Assembly (NCBI GenBank): GCA_048882505.1
Contig: JBHLRO010000002.1
Coordinates: 180,001 to 212,000, forward strand
Length of the DNA: 32,000 bases
Direction of reading: 5' to 3'
Source: Candidatus Thorarchaeota archaeon
Lineage (GTDB): Archaea; Asgardarchaeota; Heimdallarchaeia; Hodarchaeales; Hodarchaeaceae
Shown here: positions 26,558 through 32,000 of the stretch, in pieces
How positions within the stretch are numbered: position 1 is the stretch's first letter
Layout of the letters: the number at the start of each line of letters is the position of its first letter
Notes under the pieces: model-generated
The model's database searches: none
The model's input: only the letters and a program-made list of their open reading frames with translations
What the model was told of the DNA's origin: nothing
Position numbers and translations under genes: made by a program

Positions 26558-27268
26558 TTGACAATGCCCAAAGGTTTTGGCGGAGATTCCGAGGTAACCG
26601 ATTTTCAACTCATTTCTAGATTGGAACGGCTAACTCACCCTGTGACCGTAAGAAACCTTGCAACTCGACTGGAATGGTCGCGGGGAAAGGTAGATGGGGC
26701 CCTCACCCGTAGGCAAGATCAGGTAGCGGTTGTGAAGGTTTCATCTCCCAAGGGACAATCTCGGCGCTTCGTGGGTCTCCCTAATCAACCATATTGGCGA
26801 GAATTTTATGAACAGAAGATCGAAAAAGAACAAAACATCATTGTGAATGATTCACAGGGAGTTTGCAGTGATTACACTCGTTCAGGAAGCTCATTGGATG
26901 ATTCGAGGCTCTTCGACTATCAACAATCCGTACAAAACCTAACTACAAGGCTAAAAGAGAAAAACATCTACATAGAGAATTTAGAAAAACAGCTAGCTGA
27001 AATCCAAGTCTTCGATCCGCAACTATTAGATATTATTAATCAGAATATGCCAGCAATCAACAAGGCCGCACTTCGACGTAACATCACTCCTAGTGAACTT
27101 CTTGAAGCTGGTGTTCGCTATTTTATCAATCCATCCTTTGAAGCCCTTGTAAAAATGGTAGCTATTATAATTGATGATTCAAAGAAGGGAACAGATTCGT
27201 TCGAGGGAATGGCCGCGCGCTCTATTATGAAAAGGGCGGGATTGGAAATTCCAGATCGTGGTGAGTAG
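26558..27268 (+). CDS. Winged-helix, coiled-coil and helical C-terminal domain protein of unknown function
   Basis: LISRLERLTHPVTVRNLATRLEWSRGKVDGAL is an HTH pattern followed by a beta-wing. Heptads YQQSVQNLTTRLKEKNIYIENLEKQLAEI. TTG start after GAGTGG. Confidence 0.75.
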   Translation: MTMPKGFGGDSEVTDFQLISRLERLTHPVTVRNLATRLEWSRGKVDGALTRRQDQVAVVKVSSPKGQSRRFVGLPNQPYWREFYEQKIEKEQNIIVNDSQGVCSDYTRSGSSLDDSRLFDYQQSVQNLTTRLKEKNIYIENLEKQLAEIQVFDPQLLDIINQNMPAINKAALRRNITPSELLEAGVRYFINPSFEALVKMVAIIIDDSKKGTDSFEGMAARSIMKRAGLEIPDRGE

Positions 27269-27271
27269 TAA

Positions 27272-28348
27272 ATGTCAGATGGTTTAGAAAAAGAAACAAT
27301 CAAACGTCTCACCTCGGTCGGGAATGTTCTCAAAAATCCCTTTCAGCTGGTTGATGAAGTTCTCGCTGAATTAGGAAGTTTACAATCGTCTCACATCAAG
27401 ACAAGTGTTTCTGGGAGTCCTAGTATTGGCCCTAAGAAGCCCAAGAAAGGGCAAACTAAGCGAAAAAGACGTTCTCAAACAAAAAGCAAAACCAAACCAA
27501 GAACAGGTAATCGATCGGGCGGCATGCTTTCTGATTTAGCTAGTATGGTTCAAAGCTGCAGAACCTGTGGTCGCGGGGCTTTTCAAGATGAGCTCATTGA
27601 TGGAATGTGCGACTCGTGTATAAAGCAATTGAGTTTGGTAAGTACTGGTGTGGATGAGGGTCTTTCAAACCGTCTTAAAACGCTAGAAGCACAGATCAAA
27701 GAAATGAAATCGAAAAACGCAAGCCAAAGGCGAATCTCTTTGAACGATATTCGGAGGGAGATTCTGGCCACCATCCGTAAGGATTTACGGTTCGAGATTC
27801 AATCAGTAGCAAAGGGGATGAACGCGAATAATCCCCCTTCATCGCAGGGAATTTCAGGAGTTCCTCCCCCGCCCCCTCTGCCCCAAACAAATTCCGTGGG
27901 TATAGCATCTAGTTTAGATGAAATCGATTTTACCACCATGAATTTGACAGATCTAGCCAATTTTACGCCAGAATTCCTTGACTCGTTATCCCTTGCTAAA
28001 AGAAATCAATTTCGGGCTCGATTGAGAGAATTGCAACAGTTGGAACGAATGACGCCAAAACAACGAACAGAATACTACGAGCATAAGAAGCGAGAAGCAG
28101 AGGAGCAAGCAAAATTCTCAGATCTTCAATCCACCTTGAAAAATTTAGAGGAATTAGCAAATCCACTTTTCATGAAAATGAAAGAACAGGCGGAGGGTTC
28201 AACATTATCAGGAAAAGGCACGCTAGGAAGATTTGACGATGTGAATGTTTACATCCTTTGTCACAACTGCAAAAACACTAACGAGGTACAAGAAGGGAAA
28301 GATCAACCTGTGTGTGCTTTTTGTGGGACCTCATTGGAAATGAGATGA
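27272..28348 (+). CDS. Modular protein: K/R-rich patch, Zn finger, coiled coil, polyproline motif, helical region and C-terminal Zn ribbon
   Basis: PKKPKKGQTKRKRRSQTKSKTKPR; CRTC...CDSC; GVPPPPPLP; CHNC...CAFC. Starts 3 nt after the upstream gene. Confidence 0.8.
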   Translation: MSDGLEKETIKRLTSVGNVLKNPFQLVDEVLAELGSLQSSHIKTSVSGSPSIGPKKPKKGQTKRKRRSQTKSKTKPRTGNRSGGMLSDLASMVQSCRTCGRGAFQDELIDGMCDSCIKQLSLVSTGVDEGLSNRLKTLEAQIKEMKSKNASQRRISLNDIRREILATIRKDLRFEIQSVAKGMNANNPPSSQGISGVPPPPPLPQTNSVGIASSLDEIDFTTMNLTDLANFTPEFLDSLSLAKRNQFRARLRELQQLERMTPKQRTEYYEHKKREAEEQAKFSDLQSTLKNLEELANPLFMKMKEQAEGSTLSGKGTLGRFDDVNVYILCHNCKNTNEVQEGKDQPVCAFCGTSLEMR

Positions 28349-28671: not shown

Positions 28672-29562
28672 ATGAATTGGACAGACAATGAAAGCTCCAA
28701 AACTGCACAGGGCTTCTTAAACCGGGTATCTGGCGTTACACTCTGGGAGGAAATGGTTCGGGATCGGAAGGAGTTTTGTCTTAAACAATGTCAGAATAAC
28801 AAAGTTGTGAACATGCTCCGGCCGAAATGCACAGAAAGGCGATATTTAGACGTCCTATTACTGAAACGCGAACCTAAGAAGGGGATGCCTATGTTCTGTT
28901 ATTCACAACGAGTGAAGGAACTCACCCGTTCGTTCAAAGAAGGGCATACACTGCTGGCCGATGTTTATGTGTATATAGATGATTTTTACTCGATCATTCA
29001 CGAGAAACATTCGAAATCCCGTCGTGCAGCCTCAGATTTGTTGAAAAGATCGTTTAGCAGGAAGCCCGCTGAGGTTGTAGGTAGTCAGGATTACCTTATC
29101 GAAACACATTACGTTCGAGGAATGCTTTTTATTCTCTGGCCCAAGCTAGATCTCTGCTTGGTCAATGCACAAGACACTAGTATTCATAGTTTGACTATGT
29201 TCCAGTCTATTGCAGAAATCCTGGCGGAATCTTTTGCGCTTGAGGTAGAGATGGAGAGCGAAGGCAATTTTATCGAGCTTCGCTTTGCCAACCTGACCTT
29301 AACGGACTCAGTAATTATCGAAGAGAAACTGCAGATGCATTCTGCATTCACGGGGTATTCAGGAAATGAAGTTTGGGCGGAAGTTCATTTACCAACAATA
29401 ATTGAAGAAGAAGAACATGAATTCCGAGTCAAAGATCTTCATAGCATTTTCCAGACAGTGGCTGAGGTAACTGAGATCCGAGAGGTCCAGGAAGGGGAAA
29501 CTGGAGAAAAAGAAGCGGAAGAAGTTCCGCTCGCAGATTTATCGGAAGAACTCGATACCTGA
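28672..29562 (+). CDS. Hypothetical protein (alpha/beta, acidic C-terminal tail)
   Basis: 296-aa ORF with protein-like composition and no recognised motif. Converges on the Mnd1-like gene with a 10-nt gap. Confidence 0.75.
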   Translation: MNWTDNESSKTAQGFLNRVSGVTLWEEMVRDRKEFCLKQCQNNKVVNMLRPKCTERRYLDVLLLKREPKKGMPMFCYSQRVKELTRSFKEGHTLLADVYVYIDDFYSIIHEKHSKSRRAASDLLKRSFSRKPAEVVGSQDYLIETHYVRGMLFILWPKLDLCLVNAQDTSIHSLTMFQSIAEILAESFALEVEMESEGNFIELRFANLTLTDSVIIEEKLQMHSAFTGYSGNEVWAEVHLPTIIEEEEHEFRVKDLHSIFQTVAEVTEIREVQEGETGEKEAEEVPLADLSEELDT

Positions 29563-29572
29563 CAAATCGCCT

Positions 29573-29980
29573 TCAATATTCATCAAGTGGAGCATTGAAA
29601 TAACCAAGCACCTCCCGCATTGATATCCCTTTTTGCTCGGCTAGGGTTTGAGCCATGGTCAGCGCCGCCTCTTTCCACGGGTCATCAACTCCATCTTGAA
29701 TTTCAAGCCGGCGTACCTTTTCACGTTCAGATTGCAGCTCGCGTTTCATTTCTTGATTCTCTAATTCCAATCGATTAACTAAGGAATCAAGGCCCGTTGT
29801 AGCTTCGGGTGTCACCGAAGGATGATTCCAATAAATGGTCATTCGGCCTATCTTTTTACTCATCAGTTTCCCTTTTTTTACAAATTGTGCTAGATCCGAC
29901 CGTTTAATGCTCAGACCTTTCTTTTCTAATTCCGTAAACGAAAAAGGCTCCTGAAGTGAGAAAATCTCGTTATTCACCAC
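29573..29980 (-). CDS. Mnd1/Hop2-like winged-helix, coiled-coil and Swi5/LZ3wCH-like protein (candidate eukaryotic signature protein)
   Basis: EIFSLQEPFSFTELEKKG...KIGRMTIYWNHPS and WKEAALTMAQTLAEQKGISMREVLGYFNAPLD align by eye with the Mnd1 N- and C-termini (eukaryotic sequences recalled from memory). GTG start with GGGGT RBS. Confidence 0.7.
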   Translation of the reverse strand: MVNNEIFSLQEPFSFTELEKKGLSIKRSDLAQFVKKGKLMSKKIGRMTIYWNHPSVTPEATTGLDSLVNRLELENQEMKRELQSEREKVRRLEIQDGVDDPWKEAALTMAQTLAEQKGISMREVLGYFNAPLDEY

Positions 29981-30160
29981 AAATAAACCCCATACTAAGT
30001 TTGCGAGAATATGATCGCCAAGAACTTATTGCGAACATACTTTAAAAAACACTCTCCGCACCTCTGTCCAAATGTTTCTTGGGTGAAATTTTGATTCCCT
30101 AAGTTTTGGAAGTCTACATCGTTCGTTCTTAACGTTAGTATCAGGAAATTGGTTTTTAAA

Positions 30161-31579
30161 ATGGATTTAGAAGAATTTCGTAAGAATGGTCATATGCTAG
30201 TTGATTGGATGACTGATTATTTAGGGACAGTTGAACAATATCCAGTGAAATCACAGGTTAAACCTCGTGAGATCTATAATCAGATCCCAGATGAACCACC
30301 AACCGTGGGTGAGGATTTCAATCACATATTCAGTGAATTCGAAAACAAAATCATTCCTGGAATTACTCACTGGCAACATCCCTGTTTTTTCGCATATTTT
30401 CCTGCAAATAGTAGCCGACCATCTATTTTGGCTGAAATGTTGACAGCTACTCTTGCTGCACAGTGTATGATTTGGGATACCTCCCCTGCAGCCGCAGAGC
30501 TAGAAGAAAAGATGATGAATTGGTTGAGGGATATGATTGGATTACCCAAGTCCTTTTCTGGGGTAATTCAAGATACAGCATCGACTGCAACTCTCTGCTC
30601 ACTTTTGACGGCAAGAGAGAAGGCTACTCACTATGAGGTCAATGCTACTGGATTGTATAGCAAAAGAGCTTTTACAATATATTGTTCAAGTGAAACACAC
30701 TCGAGTATTGAGAAAGACGTCAAGATCGTTGGGTTAGGAAAGAACAATTTAAGGAAGGTTTCCGTGGATCAGAATTATGCCCTACGACCTGATAAACTAG
30801 AAGAAATCATTAAAAGGGATCTTAATGATGGATTTACTCCACTGGCCGTTGTGGCTACGATCGGAACGACTGGATCTACCGCGATTGATCCAATAAAGCA
30901 TATCGGGGAAATTTGTAGAAAGTATAAGATATGGCTTCATGTGGACGCAGCTTTGGCAGGAACCGCCCTACTTCTCCCTGAAAAGCGGTGGATGATTGAG
31001 GGGATAGAATATGTTGACACATTCACATTCAATCCTCATAAGTGGATGTTTACAAATTTTGACTGCAACGCTTACTTCATAAAGGATTCCGAGGCTCTTG
31101 TACGGACATTTGAGATCACTCCCGAATATCTTAAGACGCAGGCCAGAAATGTGAATAACTATCGAGATTGGGGGGTTCCACTTGGCCGAAGATTTCGGGC
31201 ATTGAAGTTATGGTTTGTTATCAGGCATTTTGGTGTTTCTGGATTGCAAGAAAAAATCCGATATCATTTAGATATGACAGACATGCTGAGAAAAAAAATC
31301 GAACAAGCAGATGATTTTGAATTATTAGCACCAGTTCCGTTGAATACAATTTGTTTCAGATATAAGCCCTCATCCATTAGGGATATGGAGAAACTCAATA
31401 GAATGAATGAGGAATTGCTTGTAAGAACGAATCAAACGGGAAAACTCTATCTAACTCATACGAAACTGAATGGAAACTATAGTCTACGATTCGTAGTAGG
31501 CCAAACCGATACTCAAGAGAGACATGTCAACCAGGCATGGGAAATAATTCAAGATTTAGCCAAAAAAATAAACTTTTAA
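30161..31579 (+). CDS. Group II PLP-dependent decarboxylase (aromatic-L-amino-acid/tyrosine decarboxylase-like)
   Basis: THWQHP.FFAYFP, HSSIEK, HVDAALAG, FNPHKW (PLP lysine) and LGRRFRALKLW motifs. Start at ATG 30161. Confidence 0.93.
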   Translation: MDLEEFRKNGHMLVDWMTDYLGTVEQYPVKSQVKPREIYNQIPDEPPTVGEDFNHIFSEFENKIIPGITHWQHPCFFAYFPANSSRPSILAEMLTATLAAQCMIWDTSPAAAELEEKMMNWLRDMIGLPKSFSGVIQDTASTATLCSLLTAREKATHYEVNATGLYSKRAFTIYCSSETHSSIEKDVKIVGLGKNNLRKVSVDQNYALRPDKLEEIIKRDLNDGFTPLAVVATIGTTGSTAIDPIKHIGEICRKYKIWLHVDAALAGTALLLPEKRWMIEGIEYVDTFTFNPHKWMFTNFDCNAYFIKDSEALVRTFEITPEYLKTQARNVNNYRDWGVPLGRRFRALKLWFVIRHFGVSGLQEKIRYHLDMTDMLRKKIEQADDFELLAPVPLNTICFRYKPSSIRDMEKLNRMNEELLVRTNQTGKLYLTHTKLNGNYSLRFVVGQTDTQERHVNQAWEIIQDLAKKINF

Positions 31580-31617
31580 ATGGGAAAGCTAGCATTTCAG
31601 AGAGGAAACGGCATCTT

Positions 31618-32000
31618 ATGTATACTATTCGGAAAAAAGACGGGTGGGGTCGCATAGGCATGCTAGAAACCAACCATGGCAAGATGATGACCCCAGTGTT
31701 ACTTCCAGTCATCAATCCTAATCGTCAAATGGTTTCTCCTCAAGAAATGGTTCGGCTAGGTGCGGAAGCATTTATCACTAACGCATATCTCTTGTTCCGT
31801 AACGCTGACAACCGAGAAAGTGTCCTTCAATCAGGATTACATAAATATCTAGAGTTTTCGGGCCCCATAATGACTGATTCGGGGGCATTTCAACTAATGC
31901 AATACGGGGATGTCGAAGTATCCAACCTTGAGATTATACAATTTCAGGAACAAATAGGAAGCGACATCGGGGTATTTTTGGACGTTCCGGTCAAAACTGA
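31618..32000 (+). CDS. tgtA: Archaeal tRNA-guanine(15) transglycosylase, N-terminal part; runs off the window edge
   Basis: Not in the ORF track; translated by hand: MYTIRKKDGWGRIGMLETNHGKMMTPVLLPVINP...ITNAY...GLHKYLEFSGPIMTDSGAFQLMQYG...FQEQIGSDIGVFLDVP. The MTDSG catalytic motif is in its archaeal context. Confidence 0.92.
   Translation, partial: MYTIRKKDGWGRIGMLETNHGKMMTPVLLPVINPNRQMVSPQEMVRLGAEAFITNAYLLFRNADNRESVLQSGLHKYLEFSGPIMTDSGAFQLMQYGDVEVSNLEIIQFQEQIGSDIGVFLDVPVKT

Follow-up and report, generated by a model that had tools for sequence, protein, structure and literature searches.

The window (the whole stretch of DNA that was analysed, 32,000 nucleotides in length) encodes, on the minus strand at positions 29573-29980, a 135 amino acid protein which is, on balance, probably a compact Asgard member of the Swi5/Hop2/Mnd1 superfamily of recombinase accessory factors. 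In this protein, a Hop2/Mnd1-type winged-helix head appears to be followed immediately by a complete Swi5-type module, made up of one leucine zipper and fold-back capping helices. The presence of one zipper rather than three, the single-copy status of the gene and the lack of a detectable Sfr1 or Hop2 partner suggest that it represents a new variant, rather than an orthologue of Hop2, Mnd1 or Swi5.

Hop2 and Mnd1 count among the textbook components of the meiotic toolkit, and Swi5-Sfr1 has, to our knowledge, been studied in eukaryotes only. Hop2 and Mnd1 have been portrayed as seemingly confined to eukaryotes, or as diverged beyond recognition from their prokaryotic ancestors (PMC2488364). Both proteins match Swi5 by HHpred, and the LZ3wCH region, which by itself binds the Dmc1 filament, resembles Swi5-Sfr1C (PMC4402518). 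A preprint of October 2026 lists an Asgard-eukaryote structural cluster for Swi5/Sae3 without describing it, and mentions neither Hop2 and Mnd1 nor a winged helix.

Structure of the gene and its predicted protein product

The gene is complete, comprising 135 codons, the first of them a GTG start codon (29978-29980), and a stop codon (29573-29575), as determined from the open reading frame list, its translation and the alignment of the N-terminus with those of homologues. The GTG start is credible since the starts of close homologues coincide with it, and one of these homologues likewise begins with a valine (GTG). The preliminary description had recognized a winged helix-turn-helix (wHTH), one short coiled coil and a C-terminal helical cap in this reading frame, and the AlphaFold2 (AF2) monomer model of the 135 amino acid protein (mean pLDDT: 81.8) reproduces this arrangement. 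The wHTH head (residues 1-55; 29816-29980, minus strand) consists of three helices (residues 2-7, 15-20 and 27-35) and a β-hairpin wing (strands 39-44 and 47-52) carrying the motif KKIGRMTIYW. It is followed by a single long helix (residues 60-98; 29687-29803, minus strand), which in the AF2 models and alignments shows the heptad character of a leucine zipper and a strongly conserved ELQ.EREKVR.. motif.

The C-terminal capping module (residues 99-135; 29576-29686, minus strand) contains two helices (residues 101-117 and 121-127), which form a two-helix cap. The AF2 models represent the monomer, so that a long helix and two short helices can be observed while the bundle packing of the cap is not visible. 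The protein ends in the tail YFNAPLDEY (residues 127-135; 29576-29602, minus strand), which in the HMM alignment is the counterpart of the C-terminal F-x-L/V-x-x-x-D/E motif of Swi5. The cap carries the family signature DDPWKE.A..MA..LAE.KG.S..EVL.YFNAP, in which W102 is invariant (25/25 family members), and the alignments show that the zipper and cap, rather than the recognition helix, are the best-conserved part of the family. The two segments which had previously been aligned by eye to MND1 and SWI5 coincide with those selected by the Pfam models, namely residues 12-53 (Mnd1 HTH) and 103-128 (Swi5).

Relationship of the C-terminal module to Swi5

The family is related to Swi5 in sequence and probably also in fold. 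Comparison against 24,736 Pfam models, with gathering scores of 22.1 bits for Swi5, 23.5 bits for Mnd1 HTH and 26.1 bits for LZ3wCH, showed that 19/21 family members match the Swi5 model (PF07061). Four relatives reach the curated Swi5 cut-off (P0014: 28.3 bits; P0011: 24.5 bits; P0018: 23.9 bits; P0019: 22.1 bits) and cover positions 1-79 of the 80 positions in the model, with the zipper helix corresponding to approximately positions 1-49 in those relatives that match it from end to end. The window protein itself, when compared singly, scores below the cut-off (Bitscore: 15.9 against 22.1; e-value: 0.014), with profile positions 50-75 aligned to residues 103-128. A phmmer search of 1.8 billion proteins links it to the Swi5-scoring relatives (e-values: 3e-15 to 5e-13). 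The single-sequence matches of the window protein to Swi5 and Mnd1 HTH are not beyond chance when taken alone and, judging by the profile scores, are significant only at the level of the family. The Pfam comparison proposed in the preliminary description gives Swi5 matches at or above the cut-off in four relatives, whereas the window protein, and all members with respect to Mnd1, TBPIP and LZ3wCH, fall below the respective cut-offs.

When the coiled coil was removed, the remaining 41 amino acid cap fragments still matched Swi5 in 16/21 members (best e-value: 2.5e-5), while no non-Swi5 family was matched by more than two of the 21. The persistence of the match in these fragments argues that the Swi5 signal does not arise from coiled-coil composition. 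A search of 400 Asgard genomes with the Pfam Swi5 model returned five matches above the cut-off, four of which are end-to-end matches, located in genomes G005 (29.8 bits), G078, G006 and G007, and all four fall on loci of this family; none of the 14 control genomes contains a match. In the genome from which the window derives, the best match to the Swi5 model is the 29573-29980 reading frame, yet with an e-value of 1.2, and the Mnd1 HTH model matches the same gene with an e-value of 0.49.

When a profile of the C-terminal half was compared against the PDB, Schizosaccharomyces pombe Swi5 ranked highest among the natural proteins and was the only match from end to end (e-value: 0.0043), with profile positions 4-73 aligned to residues 5-82 of the 85 in Swi5. 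A single-sequence phmmer search of the PDB with the window protein yielded nothing relevant, and a profile of the cap only (41 positions) returned only designed repeat proteins and noise, as it lacks the length needed to pick up the single Swi5 sequence present in the PDB. When the C-terminal profile was used in a large protein search, matches with e-values up to 10 were restricted to family members, with no eukaryotic Swi5 among them.

The tail provides a further point of comparison. In the HMM alignment the family yFgAp motif is placed on rFGVn of S. pombe Swi5, and across the family the phenylalanine is present in 19/25 members and an A, V or I residue in 25/25, while an acidic residue is found in most. 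Through the alignment to S. pombe Swi5, residues F128, A130 and E134 of the window protein occupy the positions of F83, L85 and D89 of mouse SWI5. These belong to a C-terminal motif on which RAD51 binding depends, and F83 and L85 are themselves required for it (PMC5291256). As judged from these alignments, the Asgard family thus largely retains the tail motif that Swi5 requires to bind RAD51. The two differ in that the position of mouse L85 is taken by alanine in the window protein, and in that the invariant tryptophan (W102) is a signature specific to the Asgard family.

Relationship to Hop2 and Mnd1

The family is likewise related to Hop2 and Mnd1 in its overall architecture. When the whole-protein family profile was compared against 177,635 PDB sequences, the first match was Mnd1 of Giardia (4Y66_A; e-value: 2.1e-4) and the second was the Hop2 winged helix (2MH2; e-value: 0.0024). 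In this alignment, the wing motif KIGR..IYW parallels KIG...YYW in Mnd1. The Pfam Mnd1 HTH model is matched by 18/21 members (best e-value: 6.9e-5) and by the window protein over residues 12-53 (Bitscore: 13.3 against a cut-off of 23.5; e-value: 0.1). The best score observed in any member is 22.7 bits as opposed to the cut-off of 23.5 bits, and no member exceeds the cut-offs for Mnd1 HTH, TBPIP or LZ3wCH. LZ3wCH (PF18517) is matched weakly, by P0014 only (Bitscore: 17.7 against 26.1; e-value: 0.0038) and by one cap fragment (e-value: 0.0072).

Taken by itself, the winged helix is generic, and not specifically Mnd1-like. A profile of the head only placed BlaI (e-value: 7e-4) above Hop2 and Mnd1, and the heads of some members pass or approach the cut-offs of HTH_11, IclR and TrmB. 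In the rigid-body alignment (VIA-align) of the whole model, which re-ranked the winged helix only, PadR, HypR, ArsR and MarR proteins take the lead (Z: 7.0-7.6), Z-alpha domains are also returned, and Hop2 and Mnd1 are absent from the top 50. For the Mnd1-like N-terminus that had been described from the sequence, the results point in two directions: Mnd1 and Hop2 are the top PDB matches of the whole-protein profile, while BlaI, PadR, ArsR and MarR proteins lead when the head is considered alone.

Comparison of the whole AF2 model against 550,129 Swiss-Prot models gave 17 top matches, all of which are Hop2 or Mnd1 proteins aligned over query residues 2-135 (e-values: 5e-4 to 3e-2). With the C-terminal half alone, SWI5/Sae3 proteins make up eight of the top nine Swiss-Prot matches, though with e-values of 0.6-1.6. 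Foldseek comparison of the whole model against the PDB ranked 4Y66 first, with TM-scores of 0.32-0.35 and no match at an e-value of 1e-3 or below, while Foldseek comparison of the C-terminal half with the PDB gave nothing significant, 3VIQ_D being placed at rank 8. In VIA-align of the C-terminal half, 3VIQ_B ranked first among 48,161 chains (Z: 5.3), tied with plain coiled coils. Sso10a-2, GvpE and ArsR-type proteins are also found among the fold matches, and the language-model look-alikes in the ESM-Atlas are generic bacterial HTH clusters with chance-level scores (0.84 or lower). The homology to Mnd1, Hop2 and Swi5 proposed in the preliminary description is supported by the relatives that attain the Swi5 gathering score from end to end and by Mnd1 and Hop2 as the top PDB matches of the family profile. 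Furthermore, the matches are not confined to generic wHTH proteins, given the Hop2 and Mnd1 folds recovered with the whole model and the SWI5/Sae3 folds recovered with its C-terminal half.

Distribution, copy number and genomic context

The family is small, and all of its taxon-labelled members are Asgard archaea. A scan in which nine candidates per genome were scored located it in 20/400 Asgard genomes and in 7/21 genomes of the same genus. Such patchiness would not be expected of a core recombination factor, although the scan was limited to nine candidates per genome. The family includes a natural head-less archaeal member of 80 amino acids, similar in size to Swi5, in the same syntenic slot. 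Its existence suggests that the conserved functional core of the family is not the DNA-binding head. The sequencing runs listed with the 32,000-nucleotide stretch are exclusively DNA runs from sediment or other metagenomes, with no RNA run among them.

The gene is the sole copy in the 4.3-Mb genome, with the family profile matching 29573-29980 at an e-value of 2.9e-51. No paralogue was identified in the genome by this profile, the next match being a prefoldin-β-type reading frame (e-value: 0.16); this second-best match was considered as a partner or paralogue and discarded on account of its prefoldin-β-like nature. No match to Mei5 (PF10376) was found at an e-value of 10 or below in the genome, which is 94.5% complete. 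LZ3wCH and TBPIP searches of the genome returned no matches of note, with no LZ3wCH match on the 29573-29980 gene. A neighboring gene (26558-27268) coding for a 236 amino acid wHTH and coiled-coil protein appeared by eye to carry a similar cap, but was rejected (hhalign probability: 0.9%; no BLAST match). The genome does encode four RadA/Rad51-type proteins, which represent candidate clients.

The gene is monocistronic, and neither an operon nor a conserved association with RadA, Mre11/Rad50 or further genes of recombination is seen at the family loci. Their only conserved neighbor is the gene for the archaeosine TGT. A gene for a Hef-type helicase-nuclease is located 1.5 kb from the family gene in one Hodarchaeales locus, and NucS is encoded approximately 2 kb from it in the Baldrarchaeia loci. 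A neighbor of approximately 378 amino acids in loci L033 and L034 was set aside as a functional clue, as this enzyme resembles a sugar isomerase and has no relationship to the neighbors in the window; these two loci share 74% identity in this region and as such do not represent independent lineages.

Comparison with known systems

Among the characterized proteins, Swi5/Sae3 (PF07061; S. pombe Swi5, 3VIQ chain B; mammalian SWI5) corresponds in its entirety to the C-terminal approximately 80 residues of the Asgard protein. Common to both are a leucine zipper and an F-x-hydrophobic-...-acidic tail and, probably, fold-back capping helices between them. Swi5 lacks a winged helix, whereas the Asgard protein has one ahead of the Swi5-type module. 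Furthermore, Swi5 is an obligate heterodimer with Sfr1/Mei5, while the Asgard gene is present in a single copy in a genome lacking a Mei5/Sfr1 match.

Hop2-Mnd1 (PF03962; PF07106, TBPIP/Hop2 WH; PF18517; structures 4Y66 and 2MH2) shares with the Asgard protein the order of winged helix, coiled coil and capped C-terminal bundle. Hop2 and Mnd1 are approximately 200-230 amino acids each, as opposed to 135 amino acids, and their three leucine zippers and two kinks form a rod of approximately 150 Å (PMC4402518), while the Asgard protein contains one zipper of approximately 39 residues (residues 60-98). Hop2-Mnd1 is also a heterodimer of two paralogues, whereas the Asgard genome is without a paralogue. 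Archaeal and bacterial wHTH proteins of the Sso10a and PadR/ArsR types are likewise small and consist of a winged helix and a subsequent long dimerising helix, but have neither the Swi5-type cap nor its signature, the best-conserved part of the Asgard family.

Alternative explanations

The gene could instead code for a conventional archaeal regulator that binds DNA, or for a chromatin protein, of the Sso10a, PadR, TrmB or GvpE type, in which a winged helix dimerises through a coiled coil, the C-terminal helices serve as a dimer-stabilising cap and the likeness to Swi5 reflects convergence of a short helical motif. This would agree with the head, which best matches generic regulators (BlaI, e-value: 7e-4; PadR, HypR, ArsR and MarR, Z: 7.0-7.6) and in some members passes or approaches the HTH_11, IclR and TrmB cut-offs, with the Sso10a-2, GvpE and ArsR-type proteins in the fold lists and with a gene that is monocistronic, patchily distributed and unlinked to repair genes. 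It leaves unexplained, however, why the cap alone matches Swi5 in 16/21 members and nothing else consistently, why all end-to-end Swi5 matches in 400 Asgard genomes fall on the family with 0/14 in the controls, and why SWI5/Sae3 proteins account for eight of the top nine fold matches of the head-less half. The conservation of the zipper and cap above the recognition helix and the natural head-less member of 80 amino acids also speak against a regulator, which we consider unlikely. That the similarity arose by chance or from the composition of a short helical protein, with no relation to Swi5, Hop2 or Mnd1, is disfavoured as highly improbable. Every single-sequence match of the window protein is sub-threshold, the cap-only profile found nothing meaningful in the PDB, the language-model look-alikes are at chance level, and coiled coils are known from the PDB-profile and Pfam results, where many are present, to draw spurious matches. 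Against this, independent lines drawn from 24,736 Pfam models, 177,635 PDB sequences and 550,129 Swiss-Prot models all lead to one set of three related families, both for two parts of the protein and without the coiled coil, while relatives pass curated cut-offs and the negative controls are clean.

A further explanation accepts the Swi5 homology while assigning it to a target other than a recombinase. The capped zipper would then be a general docking device for another DNA transaction, such as replication restart, repair by nucleases such as Hef or NucS, or chromosome organisation, with the winged helix as its DNA anchor. Nothing ties the gene to RadA, the family is patchy as opposed to the universal RadA, and the Hef-type gene in the one Hodarchaeales locus and NucS in the Baldrarchaeia lie close by. 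These neighbors are, however, located on other strands or behind unrelated genes and differ by lineage, and are as such anecdotal. The characterized carriers of the module, Swi5-Sfr1, Mei5-Sae3 and Hop2-Mnd1, all act on Rad51 or Dmc1 (PMC4402518), and the Rad51-contacting tail motif is conserved in the Asgard family. A true Swi5-domain protein with a non-recombinase target thus appears decidedly improbable.

Proposed function and evolutionary origin

For the favored assignment to the recombinase accessory factors, a mode of action may be proposed by analogy with the LZ3wCH bundle of Hop2-Mnd1 and the C-terminal core of Swi5-Sfr1, which act on Dmc1 and Rad51. From this analogy we infer dimerisation, binding to DNA and to RadA, and an effect on strand exchange. 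The zipper would pair two chains in parallel, and the resulting pair is proposed to be a homodimer since the genome contains one copy of the gene and a partner of the Sfr1, Mei5 or Hop2 kind could not be detected. An uncontrolled complex prediction with two copies of the 135 amino acid protein scored 0.28 against a mark of 0.42, which weighs in neither direction. The paired winged helices may hold duplex DNA, while contact with the RadA-ssDNA filament would be made by the capped helical bundle and its conserved F-x-A-P-acidic tail. Such docking could either stabilise the RadA filament or bring the donor duplex to it, with at least one of the genome's four RadA/Rad51-type paralogues as the client.

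We further raise, as a tentative possibility, that the family retains the form ancestral to the recombinase cofactors of eukaryotes, namely a homodimeric protein encoded by a single gene which combined a winged helix with a Swi5 module and worked with RadA. Hop2 and Mnd1 would then be derived from it through duplication and an expansion of the zipper, and Swi5 through losing the head. In the Hodarchaeales, at least one of the four diverged RadA/Rad51-type paralogues would be assisted by the protein. Loss of the head does occur naturally within the archaeal family, as seen in the 80 amino acid form at the same syntenic position.

A compact Asgard protein that unites a Hop2/Mnd1-type head with a complete Swi5 module would give the eukaryotic cofactors an archaeal root, and would physically link two eukaryotic families which have so far been joined only by HHpred and structure (PMC4402518). 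Should the ancestral-state reading be true, part of the "meiotic toolkit" would have been in place before eukaryogenesis, in the archaeal lineage closest to eukaryotes. The origin of these cofactors becomes directly testable with a 135 amino acid protein and an archaeal RadA.

Gene, neighbourhood and protein architecture

The ORF under study (29573-29980, minus strand) encodes a 135-aa protein from a GTG start and stands alone amid plus-strand genes in the window (contig C2:180001-212000; genome size: 4.3 Mb; completeness: 94.5%). Its AlphaFold2 model (21-sequence alignment; mean pLDDT: 81.8) comprises a winged helix (residues 1-55; the head), one long helix (60-98; the zipper) and two short helices (101-117 and 121-127; the cap). 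The zipper and cap, together termed the module, are the most strongly conserved parts, and the wider family shares the signature DDPW[KR]E.A..MA..LAE.[KR]G.T..EVL..F[GN]AP, followed by acidic residues, in which the Trp is invariant. The wHTH, coiled coil and helical cap proposed in the preliminary description are correct by both model anatomy and conservation, and we regard the ORF and this layout with confidence as real.

The gene is convergent with a 296-aa ORF (28672-29562, plus strand) whose C-terminus is acidic and for which no Pfam match was found at E<=0.1; 11 nt separate the two stop codons. On the opposite flank, a 168-nt spacer is followed by a PLP-dependent decarboxylase gene (30149-31579, plus strand; PF00282; e-value: 3e-108), the 3′ end of which runs 43 nt into the start of a gene for an archaeosine-type tRNA-guanine transglycosylase (TGT; 31537-31998, plus strand). 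In related Hodarchaeales loci the TGT gene directly adjoins the Swi5-like gene, and the decarboxylase gene in the window therefore looks like an insertion into this arrangement. The TGT gene, divergently placed, is the only neighbour conserved across lineages. Genes for a Hef-type helicase-nuclease (Hodarchaeales locus L033) and for NucS (Baldrarchaeia loci) occur within 1.5-2 kb of the family gene, but form no operon with it and vary from lineage to lineage. Two further plus-strand genes in the window, 3 nt apart, code for proteins without a Pfam family, namely a 236-aa wHTH and coiled-coil protein (26558-27268) and a 358-aa basic protein (27272-28348) with Cys pairs resembling a zinc ribbon at either end and weak A2L_zn_ribbon and HypA matches at residues 320-354. 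The former, suspected by eye of having a similar cap, is unrelated and not a paralogue (hhalign probability: 0.9%; no BLAST match).

Distribution and variants of the family

Searching 1.8 billion representative proteins exhaustively with phmmer recovered 18 relatives at E<=1e-3, eight of them at E<=1e-10, with a common layout of head, variable linker, zipper and cap. The close homologues, from Hodarchaeales MAGs, are 53-81% identical, 135-140 aa long and share the same start position. All named members are from Asgard archaea (Hodarchaeales, Baldrarchaeia, Promethearchaeota and one labelled Odinarchaeota), and some already carry an automatic PF07061 tag. The family profile detected members in 20 of 400 Asgard genomes and in 7/21 genomes of the window's own genus; scoring covered only nine candidates per genome, so that an apparent absence carries little weight. 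The locus labelled Candidatus Odinarchaeota at NCBI (L034) has its gene order in common with Hodarchaeales locus L033, one neighbouring enzyme being 74% identical. The label of this MAG contig is thus doubtful, and the two loci do not represent independent lineages.

One member (P0048; L035:3001-3243, plus strand), to which P0015 is near-identical, is 80 aa long and consists of zipper and cap only. It lies on a 17-kb contig, where its reading frame closes two codons before the ATG; no winged helix is encoded in the 130-nt spacer between it and the divergent TGT gene, and it occupies the same syntenic slot. This head-less member is genuine; within the archaeal family itself, then, losing the head gives a protein of Swi5 size. 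Other layouts were also observed. In P0013 (274 aa) the head is duplicated in tandem ahead of one zipper-cap module, and genome G397 (C40:11069-11638) has a 282-aa ORF with two partial family matches. In P0010 (246 aa), encoded on a 2-kb contig, the module follows an unrelated 170-aa N-terminal region, which could reflect a fusion or an assembly artefact.

Probable relationship to the Swi5 module

Segments of the protein had been aligned by eye to MND1 and SWI5 sequences. Pfam matches fall on the same segments, with Swi5 at residues 103-128 (Bitscore: 15.9, cut-off 22.1; e-value: 0.014) and Mnd1 HTH at residues 12-53 (Bitscore: 13.3, cut-off 23.5; e-value: 0.1), but for one sequence these do not exceed chance. 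Searches of its own genome with the two models recover the protein at E=1.2 and E=0.49, respectively, and phmmer of the single sequence against the PDB found nothing. By itself, the sequence proves nothing.

Across the family, Pfam Swi5 matches 19 of 21 members, and four reach its gathering score over nearly the whole 80-position model (P0014, 28.3 bits; P0011, 24.5; P0018, 23.9; P0019, 22.1). When cap-alone fragments (~41 aa) were cut out to exclude coiled-coil composition, 16/21 still matched Swi5 (best e-value: 2.5e-5), while every other Pfam family was matched by at most two. A profile of the head-less half retrieved Schizosaccharomyces pombe Swi5 (3VIQ_B; e-value: 0.0043) as the best natural protein in the PDB and the only end-to-end match (profile 4-73 to Swi5 5-82 of 85), the remainder being leucine zippers covering the coil only. 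In the reverse direction, the Pfam Swi5 model gave five matches above cut-off in the 400 Asgard genomes, four of which run end to end and fall exactly on family loci (G005, at 29.8 bits, G078, G006 and G007), while the fifth is partial, covering only the coil of a 459-aa ORF. None of 14 control genomes was matched at the same threshold, so this family is the Asgard target of the model.

Modelled separately (pLDDT: 82), the head-less half retrieved SWI5/Sae3 proteins as eight of the top nine Swiss-Prot fold matches, each aligned to its C-terminus and individually weak (e-values: 0.6-1.6). An independent aligner placed Swi5 first of 48,161 chains, tied with plain coiled coils (VIA Z-score: 5.3). 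HMM alignment places the family yFgAp on rFGVn of S. pombe Swi5, making F128, A130 and E134 of the protein the counterparts of the mouse SWI5 tail motif that RAD51 binding requires (F83, L85 and D89; Su et al., PMC5291256). Of 25 members, 19 have the Phe and all have a small hydrophobic residue, while the tail is acidic in most. In our assessment, the family is probably genuinely related to the Swi5 module.

Resemblance to Hop2 and Mnd1

A whole-protein profile searched against 177,635 PDB sequences matched Giardia Mnd1 first (4Y66_A; e-value: 2.1e-4), over the wing and the start of the coil, and the Hop2 winged helix second (2MH2; e-value: 0.0024). Foldseek comparison of the whole model with 550,129 Swiss-Prot models returned Hop2 or Mnd1 as all of the top 17 matches (e-values: 5e-4 to 3e-2), from animals, plants, fungi and Dictyostelium and covering query residues 2-135, with generic regulators ranking below them; in the PDB, 4Y66 likewise ranked first (e-value: 7e-3; 137 columns). 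A head-only profile placed BlaI (e-value: 7e-4) above Hop2 (0.0043) and Mnd1 (0.016), and rigid-body alignment of the whole model superposed residues 1-55 only, on PadR, ArsR, MarR and Z-alpha domains (Z ~7). The head by itself is generic, no family member passes the Mnd1 HTH, TBPIP or LZ3wCH cut-offs, and the whole-length fold match is partly one of architecture. The specific evidence is thus the Swi5-type module, the Hop2/Mnd1 likeness consisting of domain order and sub-threshold head similarity.

Given such a head, the protein could instead be a conventional wHTH regulator or a protein of chromatin. We regard this main alternative as unlikely, as it leaves unexplained both the Swi5-specific signal in the cap and the existence of a head-less member.

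Recombinases and potential partners

The family profile detects only this gene in the host genome (e-value: 2.9e-51); the next-best match, a prefoldin-beta-like ORF, was rejected as a paralogue. No Mei5/Sfr1, TBPIP or LZ3wCH matches were found in the genome (94.5% complete). With a single copy and none of these partners, the protein would pair with itself, if it works like its eukaryotic relatives. Four full-length Rad51/RadA-type genes are present (C2:354335-355075, minus strand; C15:48949-49689, C11:46840-47547 and C7:43807-44490, plus strand; L023-L026), with PF08423 scores of 316, 302, 233 and 223 bits; having so many recombinase paralogues is unusual in an archaeon. At least three of the encoded proteins are mutually only 35-42% identical and have an N-terminal HhH. 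None of the four genes is near the ORF, the closest lying ~145 kb off on the same contig. Two weak RadB/KaiC-like matches also occur in the genome.

A variant form in Asgard archaea

Hop2 and Mnd1 have been listed among the meiotic genes apparently limited to eukaryotes (Malik et al. 2008, PMC2488364), and full-text literature searches turned up no description of an archaeal homologue of either. A preprint of October 2026 names a Swi5/Sae3 Asgard-eukaryote structural cluster, with no description and no mention of Hop2, Mnd1 or a winged helix. The protein lacks the three zippers and paralogous heterodimer that define Hop2/Mnd1, as well as the Sfr1 partner that defines canonical Swi5; we therefore class it as a variant and not an orthologue of Hop2, Mnd1 or Swi5. 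Hop2 and Mnd1 each match Swi5 by HHpred, the C-terminal LZ3wCH bundle of Hop2-Mnd1 is structurally similar to the C-terminal core of Swi5-Sfr1, and LZ3wCH alone is sufficient for Dmc1 filament binding (Kang et al. 2015, PMC4402518). Because of these kinships, a Hop2/Mnd1-type head on a complete Swi5 module makes sense as an intermediate form and involves no contradiction. On balance, we favour the reading that the protein combines a Hop2/Mnd1-like head with a Swi5 module and may act, as predicted, as a dimeric RadA cofactor in these archaea.
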